A stretch of 64,000 nucleotides of DNA from a virus (lineage: Duplodnaviria > Heunggongvirae > Uroviricota > Caudoviricetes), in the IMG/VR virus record IMGVR_UViG_3300044878_000059, positions 1 through 64,000 of that record; one strand, given 5' to 3'. This document shows, piece by piece, positions 9,343 to 63,093 of this stretch (the first letter of the stretch is position 1; every line of letters starts with the position of its first letter). A program made the translations under genes and the position numbers. The notes under the pieces were generated by a model. That model worked only from the letters and a program-made list of their open reading frames with translations. It searched no databases and was not told the origin of the DNA.

Positions 9343-9390
9343 TATGAGTTCAATTCTATAGCAACACACGAACAGAATAAACATTCACTC
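9343..9390 (-). promoter_or_regulatory. phage promoter with GAACAGAA half-site
   Basis: AATGTTTA N17 TATAGA; TTCTGTTCG in the spacer. Confidence 0.5.
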
Positions 9391-9528
9391 GAAATAAACC
9401 TCTGTAAGCGTTTATATGGCGAGCGAAAGCCTACCGCGTATGTTGGGGTGCAGTTTGATATAAACCGGCCCAAAACGGATTCTGGGCGGTTCTAGAGCTA
9501 TGCAGTAAAGGTGTAGGTGATATTTGAG

Positions 9529-10134
9529 TCAGGAAAACTCAAAGAACTCTGACAGGACGCCAGAGTTTGAAGACGTGTCCATGCGATGCAGTACATCCGT
9601 AAGCCCCATACGTTCTAAGATGAACGAGAAAAATTGTTGTTGGTCTTGTTTTAACCATAGGTTAAAGGTGGGAATACCTTTCGCCCGCGCAAGATTAAAC
9701 GCAGTCGCTGTGCCACCTTTGACACTAACTCCGGCTGGTGGTGCATATGCTGCAACAACATCGGTCTTACTTTTCAAATCCAGTCCTAGGATTTGAAAGA
9801 CGTTACGGGTGTGCAACGCTTGGGCATATTCATCTAGATTTTCCCATCTAGGGTGAACTTTGCTTGCGATGTCTTCCGCGTCGAGCCATATATCACCATA
9901 GTCGCTGACGTGGCCGCAAGTAGAATCTTTTGCGATAAAACTAGAAGTTCCCTTGACAACGTAAATTTCCTTTGTATCAAAGCCCAACCACCCATTTTCC
10001 CATGCGGTGTCACATCCAATAGCCCCGCCAGACCGCAGGTTCCAGCCCTGCCGTGCCATTCGTCGGGCAATCTGATACAACATATCAAAACCGCGTTGAC
10101 TGGGATATCTGGTGCCTATCCCGGTCACGATCAT
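9529..10134 (-). CDS. SLOG-family Rossmann protein (DprA/YpsA/LOG-like)
   Basis: MIVTGIGTR...SGGAIGCDTAW...GGTATAFNLARAKGIPTF pattern typical of the DprA/SLOG Rossmann fold; internal Met chosen so the start overlaps the NADAR stop. Confidence 0.5.
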   Translation of the reverse strand: MIVTGIGTRYPSQRGFDMLYQIARRMARQGWNLRSGGAIGCDTAWENGWLGFDTKEIYVVKGTSSFIAKDSTCGHVSDYGDIWLDAEDIASKVHPRWENLDEYAQALHTRNVFQILGLDLKSKTDVVAAYAPPAGVSVKGGTATAFNLARAKGIPTFNLWLKQDQQQFFSFILERMGLTDVLHRMDTSSNSGVLSEFFEFS

Positions 10135-12449: not shown

Positions 12450-12680
12450 TTACGCGACCCAGAACAGCGCACCTTCCAGCTTGACTTGCACGATGTCACG
12501 CACGTAGTCAGCAACAGAACTGGCTTCGTTTGATGCAAACAGTTTGTTGACCACGATGTTCAACACCCCGTTCATATCCCACTGGGTAGGGATCACGCCA
12601 CTTTCCCACACGTTGTACATGTGCGGGTCAACCTGAGACACAGCAAAGCGGAAAAACTCATTCTCTGATACTTCACGCAT
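12450..12680 (-). CDS. hypothetical small protein (77 aa, internal start)
   Basis: the ORF N-terminus is an out-of-frame overlap with the MPE gene; Met71 start overlaps the MPE stop. Confidence 0.35.
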   Translation of the reverse strand: MREVSENEFFRFAVSQVDPHMYNVWESGVIPTQWDMNGVLNIVVNKLFASNEASSVADYVRDIVQVKLEGALFWVA

Positions 12681-13470
12681 CGTAATAACTCCGGTCAAGG
12701 AAGGCCACATCTTCGCCTGCATAACCATACGGGTTACAGATGACGTTGGTACAGCCAATGATATAATCGCTTGGGTGATGGATATGACCATGCAGCCAAT
12801 GACTAATCTGTGGGTGCATATGAATGAAATCATCCAAATCACTGTGGTAGCCGTGGTTCCCGTCGATATCCCACGCAAACGCCGGGTCAAGGCTTTGTGC
12901 GCTTGGTGCGTGGTGGGTTACGACGATACACGGTTCATCGGAGGCTTCGACGGTTTCCGCGATGTACGAAAGGTCAGCCTTGTGTTCCATGATCCAGTGA
13001 TGCGGTTTGAACTTCTGATAGTTCTGTCTGGTTTGATGGTAATAGGTGATTGCCTTGAAATCGTTCATCACTTGACCAAGGTGGAATTCCACCAATGGAT
13101 TTTGACGATGCATGTTCGTCCAGAGCGTTGCCCCGACGAATCGAATTCCATCAATCACCACAGAGTCACGAATCAGGAAGTGAATGTTGGTCAGACCTTC
13201 CGGGTTCATGGTTTCAAACTTCTTGCGTGCAGCATCTGGATCGATTCGATAACCGTAGTATTCGTGGTTACCGGGAACGTACACAACTGCTTTGAAGCGT
13301 TTTGCCATTGCTGTTAAGGCACTGGCGGATTTCGCGGCCCGTTTGAGCATCGTGAAATCCCCGGCGATGACCAGCACACGGTTTTCATCACCACCCAGAT
13401 ACGGCAAGGTATATTGGGTTGTTTCGTGATAGAACTCGTTGTGGACATCGGATATCAATCTGAATTCCAT
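12673..13470 (-). CDS. calcineurin-like metallophosphoesterase
   Basis: DVHNEF...GDF...GNHE motifs. Confidence 0.6.
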   Translation of the reverse strand: MEFRLISDVHNEFYHETTQYTLPYLGGDENRVLVIAGDFTMLKRAAKSASALTAMAKRFKAVVYVPGNHEYYGYRIDPDAARKKFETMNPEGLTNIHFLIRDSVVIDGIRFVGATLWTNMHRQNPLVEFHLGQVMNDFKAITYYHQTRQNYQKFKPHHWIMEHKADLSYIAETVEASDEPCIVVTHHAPSAQSLDPAFAWDIDGNHGYHSDLDDFIHMHPQISHWLHGHIHHPSDYIIGCTNVICNPYGYAGEDVAFLDRSYYDA

Positions 13471-43275: not shown

Positions 43276-43351
43276 TGGTGCGTCTGACGGGACTCGAACC
43301 CGTGGCACAGGAATTTAGAGTTCCCTGCTCTGCCAACTGAGCTACAGACGC
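43276..43351 (-). tRNA. tRNA with anticodon CUA (putative amber suppressor)
   Basis: clean cloverleaf: acceptor GCGTCTG/CAGACGC, D GCTC/GAGC, anticodon stem GGGAA/TTCCT, loop CTCTAAA (U33, A37), T ACGGG/TTCGAGT/CCCGT, A73, CCA. Confidence 0.6.
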
Positions 43352-43760: not shown

Positions 43761-44267
43761 TCATTTGCCTGTCCACGATGGGTCGATGTCGTCGCCGTAT
43801 TCCTCGATGATGACGATTTTCCTGTCTGATATAAAGGACGTTGGCCCAAGCTCGATCTTCATATCCCCGATGTCATACGACAGGGTGATGTGTGGAATGA
43901 AGCTAGGATGATCCCACGTACCGCCGTGTTCCTTCATCAGTTCCGAGTGACGATTTGATAGAAAGGTACTGGCATAGGCTAGCACCAAGGCATTCTTACC
44001 GGAAGCGGTTTTGAACACCTTCAAATCGAATTCATTCGTATCTGAGGTTGGATTCACTGGGTACACACCGAATGGAACATAATTCGGCAGGGGTTTACGG
44101 CTGTACAGCAATGTGCTATGGAATTTTTCTGGATCAAGACGATTCGGCAAATTCAACATATCTTGCATGATCATTAAATCACGCACGGTTAATGGATCAA
44201 AACGCACCCCGGCGTATGTTCCATGAATCCCTTCGGTTAGGAAGGGAAGCATTTCTCTAAAATTCAT
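43761..44267 (-). CDS. 2H phosphoesterase (LigT/CPDase/Acb1-like)
   Basis: two HxT/S motifs (HSTLLY and HITLSY). Confidence 0.55.
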   Translation of the reverse strand: MNFREMLPFLTEGIHGTYAGVRFDPLTVRDLMIMQDMLNLPNRLDPEKFHSTLLYSRKPLPNYVPFGVYPVNPTSDTNEFDLKVFKTASGKNALVLAYASTFLSNRHSELMKEHGGTWDHPSFIPHITLSYDIGDMKIELGPTSFISDRKIVIIEEYGDDIDPSWTGK

Positions 44268-50047: not shown

Positions 50048-50443
50048 TCAACTACGTGCGATGCTTGAAGCCAGTGATTTATCAAACTGACCCGCGTAGT
50101 TGGCATTGAGGTATTGCATCACCGCAGGAACACCAGCCAAACCGTTAGTCGCGATCAGTTCACGAATCTGGGGTTCGGTAAGTTGTTTCGGCAACAGTGC
50201 GTTCAGCACTTGGTTTTCGGTGTCAAGCTTTGGATTGGCACGATGTTTCAAACTTTCATCGTTGGACTTGATCAGTTTCTTGATCGCATCAACAACTTGT
50301 GCGTCTGTATAAACTTTGCCGGTACGCTTTTCAACGGTTTCGATTTCACCAATCAACAGATTGAGAATCGCAACTTCAATTGCACGGTCGGCAGATTTAC
50401 GGGCTTCGGTCTTTTGGACGCGAATTGTATCAATCAAGCTCAT
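50048..50443 (-). CDS. GatB/YqeY-domain protein
   Basis: length and helix pattern like YqeY (LPKQLTEPQIRELI). Confidence 0.45.
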   Translation of the reverse strand: MSLIDTIRVQKTEARKSADRAIEVAILNLLIGEIETVEKRTGKVYTDAQVVDAIKKLIKSNDESLKHRANPKLDTENQVLNALLPKQLTEPQIRELIATNGLAGVPAVMQYLNANYAGQFDKSLASSIARS

Positions 50444-53315: not shown

Positions 53316-53391
53316 TGGTGCTATGGACAGGGTTCGAACCTGTGACCCCTCGATTATCGGTCGAGCGCTCTACCAACTGAGCTACCATAGC
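53316..53391 (-). tRNA. tRNA-Ile (GAU)
   Basis: loop CCGATAA; D GCTC/GAGC. Confidence 0.6.
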
Positions 53392-55071: not shown

Positions 55072-55509
55072 TTAACCGCGTTTCTCAACCAGTGACTTCG
55101 CAAAATTACATGGCGAACACATGGTTGTTGTGTTACTTAAATGATCTTTGCCACCAGCCGAACGGGCCAGCGTGTGGTCATGAGTAAACAGCACTTCATC
55201 ACCGTTTGTATCAATGCCCCAGAGGTTCAAATGATATGGATGACCATCGTTCATTTGGACTGGACGTTCAACCGCGTAGAACTGAGCTTCAAGGCCACAA
55301 GCCGAGCATTTGGTTCCGTGCGTGTAGAAGGTCTTCAACCGCATGCCATCACTGAACAGTTTTACCTGTCTACCGAACAATTCGGTCTTTGGTGGCTTTT
55401 CGCGACTGCGAGGATCAAGGGTTGCTGTGTTCTTGGACTGTGCTTCGCGAATTTCTTCGATGGACACTGTACCAATCCGAGCATAAACTTGACGCTTCAT
55501 TTGTATCAA
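55072..55509 (-). CDS. HNH homing endonuclease
   Basis: HLNLWGIDTNGDEVLFTHDH...N...H HNH motif; sits inside the tRNA array. Confidence 0.7.
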   Translation of the reverse strand: MIQMKRQVYARIGTVSIEEIREAQSKNTATLDPRSREKPPKTELFGRQVKLFSDGMRLKTFYTHGTKCSACGLEAQFYAVERPVQMNDGHPYHLNLWGIDTNGDEVLFTHDHTLARSAGGKDHLSNTTTMCSPCNFAKSLVEKRG

Positions 55510-55531
55510 TCTCTGGCTGGGTTATGAATCT

Positions 55532-55578
55532 ATCATAGCACAACCGACCTACAGGATAAACATTGAAACAGAATTTGG
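55532..55578 (-). promoter_or_regulatory. phage promoter upstream of the HNH endonuclease
   Basis: ATTCTGTTTC AATGTTTA N19 TATGAT. Confidence 0.5.
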
Positions 55579-55762
55579 TCGTGGGGGCCGGACTCGAACC
55601 AACGACCTTCACCTTAGATGGTGATGCTCTTAAAAACCGGTACATCGCTACATTGCGGTCGGGCAATTACCCCCTTCCACGATCCAGCCACATACAGGCG
55701 TCTAGCGTTTACTCCCCGGTGCGCTCTCCGGCTTTCGACATTCGAAATTTAATCCAACTGAG
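55565..55762 (-). ncRNA. 198-nt tRNA-like RNA with insertions (intron-containing tRNA or Y-RNA-like)
   Basis: perfect acceptor CGTGGGG/CCCCACG, canonical 5' TAGCTCAGTTGG and 3' T-arm GTTGG/TTCGAGT/CCGGC plus CCA, but about 120 nt extra between them. Confidence 0.35.
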
Positions 55763-55831
55763 CTACCCCACGTTAAATCCGGGTTTTATCAGACCCCGGA
55801 ACTGAAATCTTGCCTTGCGGCTACATTTGCA

Positions 55832-57448
55832 TCAAACGAAACTGTCTTCGTCCTGCTTCATGTCATGCTCTAATTCGCTGACCATTTTACTGACCATTTC
55901 GTCAAACTGTTTGTTGACAACTGCCAATTCCTCACGCGGGATGTGCAGTCGTTCCAGAATGTCGCGAACTGTTTTGTTCGTTACCAACAGCTTACGTGCC
56001 CGAGTCACAGCCACATACAACAGGTTACGTTCTGCTTCATGCAGGCCGCACCATTCACCTTTGTTGTTGTAGACACCGGGGAAGTCGCTCGCCAGAAGAA
56101 CTACATCAAACTCACGACCCTTTGATTTGTGGGCTGTGGTCAGGATGATATCTGGATGATCAACGTTCTTTTGGGTCTTCAACATGCCGACGACTTTAAA
56201 GAAGTCACCGTCAGTGATGATCGTATGAACCCGTGCAAGCTCCGAACCTTTACCTGCTACTTCCTCGCTGAAATCAAACCAGCTTGTATACGGCAGCAAT
56301 TCGTCGTGCTTGACACCCGGCATATTGCCGTTTTTCAGTTCCATTGCTGATTCCAGCAACTTCACAAAGTCTTTTACATCAATCTCAAGATTGACACGCT
56401 TACCTTTCGACAGGTAATGCACTGCATCAAGCACCAACGCCATGTTGGTACGGTACAGGACGGTATAGGTGAACTTCGCATCGTCTTCTTTGAACATGTC
56501 AACGACTTTGCTGTTTACCTTATCCCAGCCACGCAGATTGGTTGAAATCGAACCATCATGAGACAGAACCGCGTTTGCTACATCGGCAATTGCCTGACCG
56601 AACCGGAACGATTGGGTCAATGCACTTTCCTTGAAAGGCAGGTTCTGCATTGCGTTGACCGAACCACGGAACTGATAGATTTGCTGGAATTGATCACCAA
56701 CAACTACGATCTTCGGTTTGGTTTGACGCAAGATGATATCGAGAACACATTCGTTTGTGTCTTGGCCTTCATCCAGATACAGGATTTCGTAACCCGACAA
56801 ATCAGGTTTCGAAAGCTGATACAGTTTCAAATATGTATCGTGTGTTGCGAGGATATTCGAATTCACATTGATTCGAAGTTTCCACAAACGCTTGGCCGTT
56901 TCAAGAACTACCTTGCGATACTCATTAAGCATCGTCGGGTTTACATCGTCCTTGTCTTTAACCGCCGAATGAGAAATATGCTTGAAAGCAAGTTCATCAT
57001 CTGCCGAATACTCGAAAGCATTCACGGTTTCACGAATCGCACGACCAATACCGGCAGATGTCACGATGGTTTTATTCATCCCACCAATCTTGACGGTAAG
57101 TGCAGGAACTCGGAAGTACCGGGCAATCTCTGAACCAGTGCCGCAAACGTTCTCATAAGCCCCTGACGGGCGTTTAAGCTTGTCCACCAATGCACGACCA
57201 TGGACGCCGAATGCAAGCGCGTGTGTGGTCTTTACGGTAACCCACGACGGGAATTTGTTCTTCGCTTCATCGGCCATGGCCTTGTTGTAAGCGAGGTACA
57301 AACTAGGTACGCAAAGTTCTTCTGCCACCATCGTTAAGGTTGTTGTTTTGGAACATCCGGCAAATGCGTTCAGCTTCGTGAATTGATTGTCAATCACGAC
57401 ACCGATAGCAACCTTTTGTTCGTCGGTTGGAACCAGAATCATCAACAC
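55832..57448 (-). CDS. SF1 DNA helicase (UvrD/Dda-like)
   Basis: Walker A AGCSKTT, motif II LYLDEGQD, VVGDQFQQIY. Confidence 0.65.
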   Translation of the reverse strand: MLMILVPTDEQKVAIGVVIDNQFTKLNAFAGCSKTTTLTMVAEELCVPSLYLAYNKAMADEAKNKFPSWVTVKTTHALAFGVHGRALVDKLKRPSGAYENVCGTGSEIARYFRVPALTVKIGGMNKTIVTSAGIGRAIRETVNAFEYSADDELAFKHISHSAVKDKDDVNPTMLNEYRKVVLETAKRLWKLRINVNSNILATHDTYLKLYQLSKPDLSGYEILYLDEGQDTNECVLDIILRQTKPKIVVVGDQFQQIYQFRGSVNAMQNLPFKESALTQSFRFGQAIADVANAVLSHDGSISTNLRGWDKVNSKVVDMFKEDDAKFTYTVLYRTNMALVLDAVHYLSKGKRVNLEIDVKDFVKLLESAMELKNGNMPGVKHDELLPYTSWFDFSEEVAGKGSELARVHTIITDGDFFKVVGMLKTQKNVDHPDIILTTAHKSKGREFDVVLLASDFPGVYNNKGEWCGLHEAERNLLYVAVTRARKLLVTNKTVRDILERLHIPREELAVVNKQFDEMVSKMVSELEHDMKQDEDSFV

Positions 57449-57787: not shown

Positions 57788-57866
57788 TGGTGGGGTTTGA
57801 TGGATTTGCACCACCACCTTCCAGACTCGATGTCCGTCCGCACTCCTAATTGTGCTAAAACCCCAG
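57788..57866 (-). tRNA. tRNA-like, anticodon unresolved
   Basis: acceptor GGGGTTT/AAACCCC, D GCAC/GTGC, unusual T-loop TGCAAAT. Confidence 0.3.
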
Positions 57867-58484: not shown

Positions 58485-58559
58485 TGGTGGGAACAGATGG
58501 AATTTAACCATCATTTCTGGCGCGAAGCCCCGGTGTCCTAGACGTTAGACGACATTCCC
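58485..58559 (-). tRNA. tRNA-like, anticodon unresolved
   Basis: acceptor and T-arm GATGG/TTAAATT/CCATC fold; anticodon stem poor. Confidence 0.35.
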
Positions 58560-60823: not shown

Positions 60824-60845
60824 ATAACAGAATGCATTTTTTTAA

Positions 60846-60915
60846 TAAGACGGACTCGAACCGAAACCTCCCAACGATCAAGTCGGGCGCTCTAACCAAT
60901 TAAGCTATATTCCTT
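60846..60915 (-). tRNA. tRNA remnant or pseudo-tRNA
   Basis: good D-arm TAGCTTAATTGGTTAGAGC, weak T-stem, no matching acceptor 3' strand. Confidence 0.25.
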
Positions 60916-61689: not shown

Positions 61690-63093
61690 TTATTGCCAGT
61701 CGTAACGTGGAACTTGCAGGGTTTCCAACATCATGGACAGAGGGGTTACCTCTGGGACTTCGGTTTGAGCCAAAATCGACTTCATGATTGCTGGGCTGAA
61801 ACCCGTTACCATTGCGGTTCCGCCGACGCCGAAGCTGACAGGCAGGTTACCGAACGCAGAGTTCATGTTCCAGAAGATGATGTCAGGACGTTTGTAGCCA
61901 GCGGCTTCGTACATCCGATCAATCATCGTAAACGCAGAATCGTTGTTGAAACGACCATCCACTTGGTTGAACTGCATATCCGACCAAAGAATGATCTTGG
62001 TTGGCATGTCAGCTACCGGAACCTTGTGTTTCACCGCCGCTTGCAGGATCAGTTCAAACGACTTTTGCAGGTTGGTAGAACCACCCCACGGTGCGGATTG
62101 TGTCTTGTAAACACGATCACGCAGAGTCTTACAATCCGACAGATCAACCCAAGTAGGGTTGTTGTGGAACGTAATGAATTGATCTTTGAAGATGCCCTTG
62201 GAACGCTCTGCAACGTACATACCCAGCGATACCGCCACGTCCATACAGGTCAGACCTTTGGAGGCGTAGTAGCTGCTCATAGAGCCGGACACGTCCACGA
62301 TGCCAAGCAGGTTCTCTTTCGAGTCTGCGAGGTAATCCGGCAGTGCCTTCCACTGTGCATCAGCAACACCTTCTACGCCGCCGTTCAAACTGCGAAGAAC
62401 GTCGTAAGGGAAGATCGCACCGGCATTGACTTTGGTTTTACCCGTAGCCAGACCGTCGATCCACTCTTGGTACGCTTCTGGAGCATTACGCTTGAACGCA
62501 CGTTGGTAGTTCTTCGAAGCAACCGATGGGAGCTTGCTGAAATCGATTTGATTCCATTGCTGCGCGCACATCTTCTGTTCCACGGTTTTGGACAGCGGAA
62601 CGATCAGCTTGCGGTAACCACGCGGGGTCAACTCAAACTGGTTCATGAAGAACCGGGAATACTTCTTGCCTTCACGCGGCATCCACTTGGCACACAGACC
62701 GTTACCGTCAAGCAGAGCTTGTGCAACAATCTCAGTGATGATGAAGTCCAGCGTTTCGGACAGACCGATCAGTTGCCACAGGTCATCCCAACGACCCACT
62801 TCTGGGATTTTGGCGACGATACGACCGGCAACGTTGATGTCGGTTTCACGAACAACTTGGTTCATGAGAGAACGGAACGTTTGACGTTCGCCAGCACCAC
62901 CGCGAATATCGCGAACCCACAACAGTTGACGAACTGCCAAATCGGCATCTTCGTTGTACGCTTTGCGGAACTGAGCCGACAGGTCAAGCCCACGGGCCGA
63001 ACCGATCTTGGCGAACAGATCGACGTTTGCATTGAAGCTGGATTTCTGCGCTGCCATACCATTGGTGGTACGGGTCAAATTGGTTTTGCTCAT
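61690..63093 (-). CDS. vWA-domain protein with N-terminal helical domain (Ro60/TROVE-like architecture)
   Basis: MIDAS motif VDVSGSMSS in the C-terminal half; 250-aa helical N-terminal domain. Confidence 0.5.
   Translation of the reverse strand: MSKTNLTRTTNGMAAQKSSFNANVDLFAKIGSARGLDLSAQFRKAYNEDADLAVRQLLWVRDIRGGAGERQTFRSLMNQVVRETDINVAGRIVAKIPEVGRWDDLWQLIGLSETLDFIITEIVAQALLDGNGLCAKWMPREGKKYSRFFMNQFELTPRGYRKLIVPLSKTVEQKMCAQQWNQIDFSKLPSVASKNYQRAFKRNAPEAYQEWIDGLATGKTKVNAGAIFPYDVLRSLNGGVEGVADAQWKALPDYLADSKENLLGIVDVSGSMSSYYASKGLTCMDVAVSLGMYVAERSKGIFKDQFITFHNNPTWVDLSDCKTLRDRVYKTQSAPWGGSTNLQKSFELILQAAVKHKVPVADMPTKIILWSDMQFNQVDGRFNNDSAFTMIDRMYEAAGYKRPDIIFWNMNSAFGNLPVSFGVGGTAMVTGFSPAIMKSILAQTEVPEVTPLSMMLETLQVPRYDWQ

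Follow-up and report, generated by a model that had tools for sequence, protein, structure and literature searches.

The DNA examined here, hereafter the window, is a stretch of 64,000 nucleotides (nt) from the Caudoviricetes record IMGVR_UViG_3300044878_000059, and the subject of this work is a single-copy RNA gene on its minus strand that combines the complete parts of an arginine transfer RNA (tRNA-Arg) with a structured domain of ~121 nt inserted into the D-loop. Read on the reverse complement, the gene runs from 55772 to 55576 and comprises 197 nt including the CCA end: A first-pass annotation of the window had noted a 198-nt tRNA-like gene at 55565–55762, and such a gene is indeed present, but on the minus strand and with a true span shifted by about 10 nt. 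The linear order is CGUGGGG-UA-GCUC-AGUUGGAU-(~121 nt)-A-GAGC-A-UCACC-AUCUAA-GGUGA-AGGUC-GUUGG-UUCGAGU-CCGGC-CCCCACG-A-CCA. The acceptor strands CGUGGGG (55766–55772) and CCCCACG (55580–55586) form seven of seven pairs in all sequences of the family and are followed by A73 (55579) and an encoded CCA (55578–55576). The 5' strand of the D-stem, GCUC, and the 5' part of the D-loop, AGUUGGAU, which supplies A14, G18, G19, A20, and U20a, occupy 55752–55763 and are invariant in our alignments A3 and A4. On the far side of the insertion, 55609–55629 holds the 3' strand of the D-stem (GAGC, 55629–55626), A26, and the anticodon arm UCACC-AUCUAA-GGUGA (55624–55609) with its 6-nt loop (55614–55619), and 55587–55608 holds the variable loop AGGUC, whose C48 is free for the G15:C48 pair, together with the T-arm GUUGG-UUCGAGU-CCGGC. 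All stems of the cloverleaf pair, and U8, A14, G15:C48, G18, G19, A21, and the UUCGA of the T-loop are present and invariant. The acceptor pairing, the 5' D-arm motif UAGCUCAGUUGG, and the T-arm with A73 and CCA had already been described in the first-pass annotation and were confirmed on the reverse complement. Its proposal that ~90 nt replace the anticodon arm did not hold, as the 3' strand of the D-stem and the full anticodon arm come after the extra sequence. Likewise, the estimate of ~120 extra nt was right in amount but wrong in assuming two insertions: The 25-nt hairpin UUUCGA-AUG-UCGAAA does exist, but as the 5' end of the single D-loop insertion and not as a separate one.

The insertion occupies 55631–55751 and is placed between U20a and A21 by alignments A3 and A4. 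Its 5' end is a short hairpin or linker, after which two arms follow that are separated by a GAGUCG-type linker. Arm 1 (55706–55740) consists of helix H-b (UGUC/AACG), an internal loop, and helix H-a (CCGG/CCGG), the latter being capped by the 8-nt loop AGAGCGCA (55720–55727), whose GCGC is invariant in A4. Within the internal loop, G(U)CGAAAG faces GGAGUA, and across the relatives (C)GAA(A) faces (A/G)GUA; we read this pairing of a GAA with an AGUA strand as a putative sarcin-ricin or loop-E-like signature. Arm 2 (55636–55699) is a long imperfect rod composed of helix I (CC..GG) and inner helices, with a GGG-loop-CCC hairpin as its cap. Folded alone, it adopts the succession of stem, internal loop, stem, and apical hairpin in most members of the family (z = −3.8 for the arm of the window). 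Contacts of the GCGC loop with the apical or the anticodon loop can be seen by eye, and they are too short and too variable for a claim.

The element is carried by ten diverged lineages with 65–75% identity, which are designated here by contig labels. A first route to these relatives led from homologues of the upstream UvrD-like helicase to syntenic contigs, in which the element lies directly 3' of the helicase gene (L002/L003, L004, L005/L006, L007, L166, L169, and L170); across the lineages, these flanking helicases share ~64% protein identity. Homologues of the Ro-like gene described below led to three more diverged members, L423, L425, and L426. In L423 the helicase is absent and the element is located between tRNA-Asn (9 nt upstream) and tRNA-Asp (~10 nt), a packing that fits co-transcription and co-processing with the tRNAs. 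The nearest cultured phages are the Pseudomonas phages Astolliot (OM982621; host P. syringae) and Milchi (PQ464597; host P. poae) of ~174 kb each, both of which carry the element, at 67004–67200 and 67651–67847, respectively: In Astolliot it bears no annotation, in Milchi it is entered as a 194-nt 'tRNA-OTHER', and the publication on Milchi gives just the count of '29 predicted tRNAs' (PMC11780129). A blastn search of the isolate phages with the window sequence gave no match; the Milchi version alone recovers Milchi and Astolliot. Pattern scans with GCTCAGNTGGAT..GAGTCGCC returned ordinary tRNAs only, a scan of IMG/VR with GCTCAGNTGGAT..GCGC..GGTTCGA yielded four matches, all of them unrelated, and the same GCGC pattern had at least 120 matches in bacterial genomes, with none among the matches listed fitting the family profile. 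In IMG/VR and 185,579 bacterial and archaeal genomes, no member beyond this phage clade was found among the matches listed, and no insert-free allele was seen in the related loci. Separately, we came across an unrelated contig (IMGVR_UViG_3300045988_143321, L296:1214–1330) with a tRNA-like gene whose acceptor stem, D-arm, and T-arm are normal; ~55 nt take the place of its anticodon arm, and a normal tRNA lies beside it.

Because the minimum free energy (MFE) folds of the whole molecule disagree among members and RNAalifold recovers only part of the structure from the raw MAFFT alignment, we built a structural alignment by hand (A4), for which the sequences were segmented manually and passed through MAFFT with N as a gap placeholder so that the register was kept. 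The RNAfold check proposed in the first-pass annotation thus gave inconsistent results for the complete element but a shared fold for arm 2 taken alone. For the eight helices of A4, 93.8% of the cells pair as compared to 38–45% when the partners are slid by 1–3 columns, changes on both sides occur at 21 of 42 pairs in the proposed structure as compared to 2–6 of 42 in the slid controls, and none of 500 shuffles reaches the observed pairing or covariation score. The four insert helices considered alone are paired in 87.4% of the cells (31–46% when slid), and 11 of their 21 pairs are compensatory: Such changes are found at three of the four pairs in each of H-b and H-a and at five of the ten pairs of helix I, with further compensatory variants of H-a in L425 (AUCGG/CCGAU) and L426 (UCAG/CUGA). 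In the tRNA part, compensatory changes affect all five pairs of the anticodon stem and three pairs of the acceptor stem, which reads GCGUGAG/CUCACGC in L423. As judged from these compensatory changes in the aligned sequences, the tRNA module and the insert module are both under selection. Conservation of sequence and structure is hence established, and the element represents a conserved, previously undescribed phage RNA family in which a tRNA-Arg body is joined to a structured D-loop domain.

Intact, the element elicits no ARAGORN call and no Rfam call, neither at the gathering score nor at E ≤ 10 on 55450–55900, and its relatives likewise remain uncalled by Rfam at the gathering score; the tRNA, group I intron, and Y_RNA models that the first-pass annotation had suggested for comparison are among those without a match at E ≤ 10. 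Once the insert is deleted in silico, ARAGORN reports tRNA-Arg(UCG) for L005 and L170, tRNA-Arg(GCG) for L002, L004, L166, Milchi, Astolliot, and L169, and a 'tRNA-?' (Arg or Pyl) with a 6-nt loop for the window and L007. When run in intron mode on the intact sequences, the same program forces an intron into the anticodon loop and assigns an isotype that differs for nearly each member, an output we discarded as meaningless. The exonic D-loop, AGYUGGAU..A, matches that of E. coli tRNA-Arg(ICG). By its sequence, the element descends from tRNA-Arg, and the first-pass idea of a tRNA-derived RNA is borne out by the complete tRNA parts and by the Arg calls obtained without the insert.

The anticodon loops are for the most part non-canonical. 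A canonical 7-nt loop with U33 and a purine at position 37 is found in just two of the ten lineages, L005 (AUUCGAA) and L170 (CUUCGAA), both with the anticodon UCG, and is lacking in the window. The window and L007 share the 6-nt loop AUCUAA, and loops of the same length occur in L425 (AACUAA) and L426 (AUCUGA), the stems of these lineages being UCACC/GGUGA, UCGGC/GCCGA, and CCGGC/GCCGG. Since the 6-nt loop has been kept in four lineages through compensatory stem changes, it constitutes a selected state and not a recent defect. Elsewhere, the loop is CCGCGAA with C33 (L002/L004 and L166/Milchi/Astolliot), the 8-nt AACGCGAA (L169), or AAGCGAA with A33 and a G·A closing pair (L423). As a control, U33 is present in 184 of the 193 ordinary tRNAs of the same phages, and the orthologues of these tRNAs keep their anticodons. 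At the sequence level, A20, C35, G/U36, A37, A38, and A/G73 are kept in all ten lineages; the identity nucleotides of E. coli arginyl-tRNA synthetase (ArgRS) are A20, C35, G/U36, and A/G73. This pattern of sequence conservation indicates selection on the tRNA fold, the acceptor end, and the nucleotides that face ArgRS but not on the ribosome-facing geometry, and the non-canonical loops argue against normal decoding. In the literature searched, we found no description of an RNA that unites a complete tRNA, a 121-nt D-loop domain, and, in one subgroup, a conserved 6-nt loop. A role as amber suppressor or in TAG recoding was considered and rejected: The loop of the window contains CUA but has only 6 nt, and a separate canonical amber-suppressor tRNA exists at 43276–43351 on the minus strand (anticodon CUA, loop CUCUAAA, 69 bits with the Rfam tRNA model, 'tRNA-Pyl' in ARAGORN). 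This suppressor tRNA has a counterpart in L005 (20189–20265). The stop codons of 51 long minus-strand open reading frames are TAG in one case, TAA in 26, and TGA in 24, and since the long frames read through uninterrupted with the standard code, the phage avoids TAG as a stop codon and does not recode it in-frame.

The window comes from a large phage genome that encodes a T4-type replication module with a family B polymerase and a gp44-like clamp loader as well as Acb1, and its more than 30 tRNA genes are all located on the minus strand. Directly 3' of the element, an HNH endonuclease gene (55072–55509, minus strand; Pfam HNH and HNH_5) is found, orthologues of which (50–73% identity) have the same place in L007, L170, and L166/Milchi/Astolliot; the gene is absent from L005, L169, L002, L004, and L423. 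A link between the HNH gene and the RNA is possible. Milchi possesses a second HNH gene elsewhere in its tRNA array. On the other side, a conserved 5' flank (55773–55825, minus strand; upstream-region alignment A6) comprises a GNRA hairpin GCC-GCAA-GGC (55812–55821), a hairpin CCGGG..CCCGG (55779–55799) with a stem that covaries in Milchi and Astolliot, and a TAAAAC-like box with invariant AAAA ~10–15 nt ahead of the mature 5' end. Neither a consensus sigma-70 promoter nor a terminator scored in 55773–55825, and the flank possibly represents a terminator plus promoter, a leader, or a processing signal. Three low-scoring tRNA-like genes are present at 57791–57864, 58488–58559, and 60843–60911 (minus strand; Rfam 30–41 bits, no ARAGORN call), and with their odd D or anticodon loops they may be degenerate or non-decoding tRNAs. 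Inside the tRNA region, genes for an Acb1 homologue directed against the cyclic oligonucleotide-based antiphage signaling system (anti-CBASS; 43761–44267, minus strand, Pfam E 6e-32) and for a YqeY-like protein with a tRNA-related GatB/Yqey-type domain (50048–50443, minus strand) are syntenic in relatives.

A candidate protein partner is encoded 5.9 kb upstream of the element, at 61690–63093 on the minus strand, where the first-pass annotation had pointed out a vWA/Ro60-like gene as a reason to consider a Y RNA. Pfam assigns the product to DUF2828 and DUF7788 and reports vWA_Ro60 below threshold only, Pfam TROVE gives no match at E ≤ 0.01, and sequence searches of the PDB with the DUF2828 protein reveal no link to Ro60. 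Structure prediction confirmed the Ro60 fold: An AlphaFold model based on an alignment of 35 sequences (predicted local distance difference test 86, predicted template modeling score 0.86) has as its top Foldseek matches the Ro60 structures 2I91, 1YVP, and 9NFA (E ~1e-9, namely 1.6e-9; template modeling score ~0.6; nearly full length), and D. radiodurans Rsr (2NVO) and the Ro60 of Thermus phage phiLo (9KOP, 9L5Y) are found as well. According to this model, the DUF2828 protein has the Ro60 architecture of a TROVE-like ring and a vWA domain. In all relatives whose flank is long enough, the gene is co-oriented with the RNA and upstream of it, at a distance of 1.7 kb in L423, 4.2–4.7 kb in L425 and L426, and 5.8–7.7 kb in the others. 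In the Felix O1-like phage JH2, the Ro-like gene abuts the tRNA array, which is not the case in KVP40. Bacterial Y RNAs are tRNA mimics that have been derived from tRNAs more than once and are encoded beside Ro60, and Ro binds the motif GNCGAAN0-1G or CGAA (PMC4201824). Moreover, phiLo Ro60 binds RNAs composed of stem, CGAA bulge, and stem and recruits the host polynucleotide phosphorylase (PNPase; PMC12135203). The internal loop of arm 1, which reads GUCGAAAG in the window, has the corresponding layout of stem, (C)GAA loop, and stem, a motif that is too short to carry significance on its own. Of the first-pass suggestion of a Y-RNA- or YrlA-like mimic, the Ro60-fold gene proved real, but the element matches neither the YrlA (RF02553) nor the Y_RNA model, and its ends do not form a Ro-binding stem.

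We also surveyed the surroundings of other Ro-like genes for T-arms outside any ARAGORN-called tRNA, here termed orphan T-arms. Eighty IMG/VR loci around DUF2828 genes contain 90 of them (86 on the gene strand, four on the opposite strand) per 429 ARAGORN tRNAs, and 120 control tRNA-bearing viral loci contain 43 per 544, so that with this crude control orphan T-arms are ~2.7 times commoner per tRNA in the Ro-like loci. Several (for example, the T-arm GAUAGG-UUCAAAC-CCUGUC) lie ~70–100 nt past the stop codon of the Ro-like gene and are followed by a G+C hairpin; they are located in L434 (~9400–9500), L442 (~9400–9500), L446, L452, and L494 (~9380–9480), are called neither by ARAGORN nor by Rfam at E < 0.5, and from their sequences might be unrecognized Y-like RNAs. 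Other phages with a Ro-like gene carry homologous tRNAs of 113–123 nt in which ~50 nt (52 nt) take the place of the anticodon loop and which ARAGORN misses. The loci concerned are L421:12408–12524, 12653–12765, and 12811–12871, L427:9868–9988 and 9998–10110, and L442:11342–11464; the tRNAs have Rfam tRNA scores of 41–57 bits, share the strand of the Ro-like gene, and follow it downstream at 0.5–2 kb (in L421 and L427, 113–121 nt long and at 0.5–1.4 kb). Beside the insert tRNAs of L421, an unrelated Ro-like locus, there is a weak YrlA match (24.7 bits, E 0.021). Together, these observations suggest that the Ro-like genes of phages are commonly found in the company of expanded tRNA-like RNAs.

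As the best explanation, which we put forward tentatively, the element is a stable, non-decoding scaffold derived from tRNA-Arg and plausibly a Y-like partner of the phage Ro60-fold protein. From the conserved features described above we infer that the RNA is expressed, processed in a tRNA-like manner with the insert being retained, and bound by the Ro-like protein. In this mechanism, the tRNA module would allow the transcript to leave the precursor of the tRNA array and to mature like a tRNA by RNase P cleavage, 3' trimming, and CCA formation; it would also confer a stable L-shape, and binding or charging by ArgRS may persist. The insert, grafted onto the variable pocket of the D-loop, would point away from the tRNA core and form two arms, which most likely serve as a protein-binding platform with the Ro60-fold protein as the most plausible partner. 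The RNA would then act like YrlA, Yrn1, and phiLo Yrl1/2, which serve as a gate for Ro60 and connect it with exoribonucleases of the host, PNPase among them.

Several points weigh against this explanation. The structural alignment that underlies the covariation was made by hand, was fitted to the proposed structure, and comprises 9–10 sequences. With regard to decoding, C33 is likewise found in the tRNA-Ile(GAU) of this phage, which is a good tRNA in other respects (53316–53391, minus strand; 71 bits, loop CCGAUAA, the same loop type being found in relatives) and U33 is missing from nine of the 193 tRNAs of these phages, so that C33 alone is not decisive; moreover, the fully canonical UCG loop of two lineages suits a real tRNA-Arg if the insert is removed. 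As for the Ro partnership, more than ten tRNA genes lie between the element and the Ro-like gene, which makes their nearness weak evidence, and the protein family is found in at least 710 isolate phage records, which span Felix O1-like, KVP40-like, Listeria, Staphylococcus, and mycobacterial phages and are in part annotated as 'Ro-like RNA-binding protein', as opposed to two isolates with the RNA. A specific co-occurrence of RNA and Ro gene is consequently not demonstrable, the protein family being far more widespread. There is no Rfam match to Y_RNA or YrlA at E ≤ 10 on 55450–55900 or at E ≤ 1 across 40–64 kb, and the topology differs from known Y RNAs in that the 5' and 3' ends pair as an acceptor stem with CCA. 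Finally, the motif in the arm-1 loop is short, with GAA being present in all lineages and CGAA in about half.

According to the principal alternative, the element is an intron-containing tRNA-Arg: The insert would be a new kind of D-loop intron that is removed by self-splicing or by an endonuclease and a ligase to give tRNA-Arg(UCG/GCG), and the free-standing HNH enzyme could cut intron-less alleles. The combination of an intron with a free-standing endonuclease is the pattern known as 'collaborative homing', and the presence of the orthologous HNH gene directly 3' in four lineages of both subgroups agrees with it, as does the position of the insertion, which interrupts tRNA genes where their DNA is most conserved, the kind of site that homing typically targets. 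A complete tRNA-Arg results when the exons are joined, the UCG loops of L005 and L170 would complement the phage tRNA-Arg(ACG) and (UCU), the insert is as highly structured and conserved as would be expected of a ribozyme, and the 'tRNA-OTHER' entry of the Milchi annotators points in the same direction. We nevertheless hold this alternative to be doubtful, though worth serious consideration. No group I or II intron, self-cleaving ribozyme, tmRNA, Y_RNA/YrlA, or other Rfam family matches the element at E ≤ 10, and the named families were likewise without a match at E ≤ 1 across 40–64 kb and at the gathering score in the relatives. The hallmarks of group I introns are a P3–P9 core (RF00028), a size of ~200 nt or more, and a position in the anticodon loop; at 121 nt, the insert is far below the known sizes, as the first-pass annotation had correctly objected, and no P1/internal guide sequence pairing was found by hand. 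An archaeal-type bulge-helix-bulge (BHB) intron was rejected as well: Just a weak A-U helix of 3–5 bp closes the insert, inspection by hand revealed no 3-4-3 BHB at the junctions, and the hosts are bacterial, the cultured relatives infecting Pseudomonas. Furthermore, the junctions are unconserved beyond the tRNA nucleotides, about half of the lineages lack the HNH gene, no insert-free allele turned up in the related loci, and eight of ten lineages have loops unfit for standard decoding, among them the 6-nt loop with its compensated stems. The more specific proposition of a hitherto unrecognized class of small phage tRNA intron, which is excised by its own catalysis or by a nuclease–ligase pair and spreads or is maintained with the assistance of the HNH enzyme, appears improbable to us.

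The same conservation pattern that speaks against decoding could also reflect a Ro-independent function as a tRNA-Arg decoy or ArgRS ligand, in which the unspliced RNA soaks up or inhibits a host factor that recognizes tRNA-Arg. Its target would be ArgRS or a colicin D-type tRNA-Arg anticodon nuclease, or else the RNA could donate arginine in a non-ribosomal reaction, and the insert would keep the RNA out of the ribosome and make it more stable. Conservation covers the ArgRS identity set and the 3' half of the anticodon loop, with the decoding-relevant 5' half being variable, the acceptor stem is perfect and followed by an encoded CCA, other degenerate tRNA-like genes are present in the window, and phage tRNAs have been described as counteracting tRNA-targeting defenses (PMC11555353). 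This explanation is wholly inferential and in our estimation unlikely: It leaves the need for a large, covarying two-armed domain unexplained, and the window yielded no nuclease or transferase specific for tRNA-Arg. ArgRS contacts the D-loop at A20, and as the insertion adjoins this nucleotide, it may hinder recognition. Very improbable, finally, is a decaying tRNA-Arg pseudogene that harbors the inert remnant of a mobile element and has no function. It would account for the failure of tRNA finders to detect the element, for the aberrant anticodon loop of the window, and for the other low-scoring tRNAs in the arrays of these phages, but it conflicts with the retention of the element in ten lineages despite the divergence of the flanking helicases, with the compensatory changes in tRNA and insert helices, with the invariant loop nucleotides GCGC and GGG, and with the lack of a target-site duplication or terminal repeat in this single-copy element. 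An origin from a miniature inverted-repeat transposable element or another transposon was rejected for related reasons: The 'TTAA' at both ends of the insert in the window is unconserved, terminal inverted repeats are lacking, and the element is single-copy.

What follows from these findings depends in part on the fate of the insert. In any case, a conserved, structured phage RNA family has been overlooked by standard annotation with ARAGORN and Rfam. The RNA partners of Ro60-fold DUF2828 proteins are almost wholly unknown, and the element provides a concrete candidate that is present in two cultured phages. If the Ro partnership is true, the element would represent a third, independently evolved route from a tRNA to a Y RNA, and phage tRNA arrays would be tied to Ro-type RNA quality control or to the hijacking of host exonucleases. 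Splicing of the insert, on the other hand, would make it a new class of intron and the first tRNA intron of the bacterial world outside the anticodon loop, far below the size of group I introns.

A comparison with known systems places the element between several classes of tRNA-related RNA. Like transfer-messenger RNA (tmRNA), which is processed and CCA-ended like a tRNA, it joins an acceptor/T-arm module to a large structured insert. Unlike tmRNA, however, it has U:A at position 3:70 instead of G3:U70, lacks a tag reading frame and a ring of pseudoknots, and possesses a D-stem and an anticodon arm; accordingly, the ARAGORN tmRNA search found nothing and Rfam tmRNA gave no match. Intron-containing tRNA genes, of the bacterial group I or archaeal BHB type, resemble it in that the gene is interrupted and the exons rebuild a cloverleaf. 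Bacterial group I tRNA introns reside in anticodon loops, and archaeal BHB introns are in some cases found in D-loops; the element differs from both by a 121-nt D-loop insert in the tRNA of a bacterial virus, by the absence of a group I core or BHB, and by anticodon loops that are mostly non-canonical.

Closer in overall architecture is T4 RNA C (species 1, rnaC), a stable RNA of the T4-type tRNA cluster with unknown role (PMC3014915). Its MFE fold (z = −4.6; L171:2909–3047) is a tRNA-like four-way junction with the T-arm CCGGG-UUCGAAU-CCCGG, a hairpin with a 6-nt loop, and a rod on the D-side, whereas the neighboring RNA D (rnaD, L171:3054–3172) shows no T-arm. In contrast to the element, T4 RNA C has no D-stem, no D-loop with G18G19, an imperfect acceptor stem, and no encoded CCA. 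Homology was rejected, as the nhmmer profile of the family gives no match on the T4 locus L171; the two RNAs are alike in architecture alone. T4 is not known to have a Ro-like gene.

Finally, with regard to the Y RNAs, the element deviates in that its two ends pair as a genuine 7-bp acceptor stem, CCA is encoded, and the anticodon arm is complete, and its extra module sits inside the D-loop and does not extend from the anticodon or acceptor position. Bacterial Y RNAs are encoded on the strand of a Ro60 orthologue and at most ~4 kb from it (PMC4201824), whereas here the distance to the Ro-like gene is 1.7–7.7 kb, mostly beyond 4 kb, and the protein belongs to DUF2828/DUF7788. The likeness, on the other side, extends to both parts of the molecule: YrlA, Yrn1, and phiLo Yrl1/Yrl2 also combine a tRNA-like module, with D- and T-arms and tertiary contacts, with a helical module that contains a (GN)CGAA internal loop (PMC4201824, PMC12135203). 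In addition, RNase P cleaves M. smegmatis YrlA, which also receives a CCA tail, and the 'anticodon loop' of Yrn1 comprises 6 nt (PMC4201824). The element shares such a loop with Yrn1, has a Ro60-fold gene on its own strand, and, like the Y RNAs with their multiple origins from tRNAs, descends from a tRNA.

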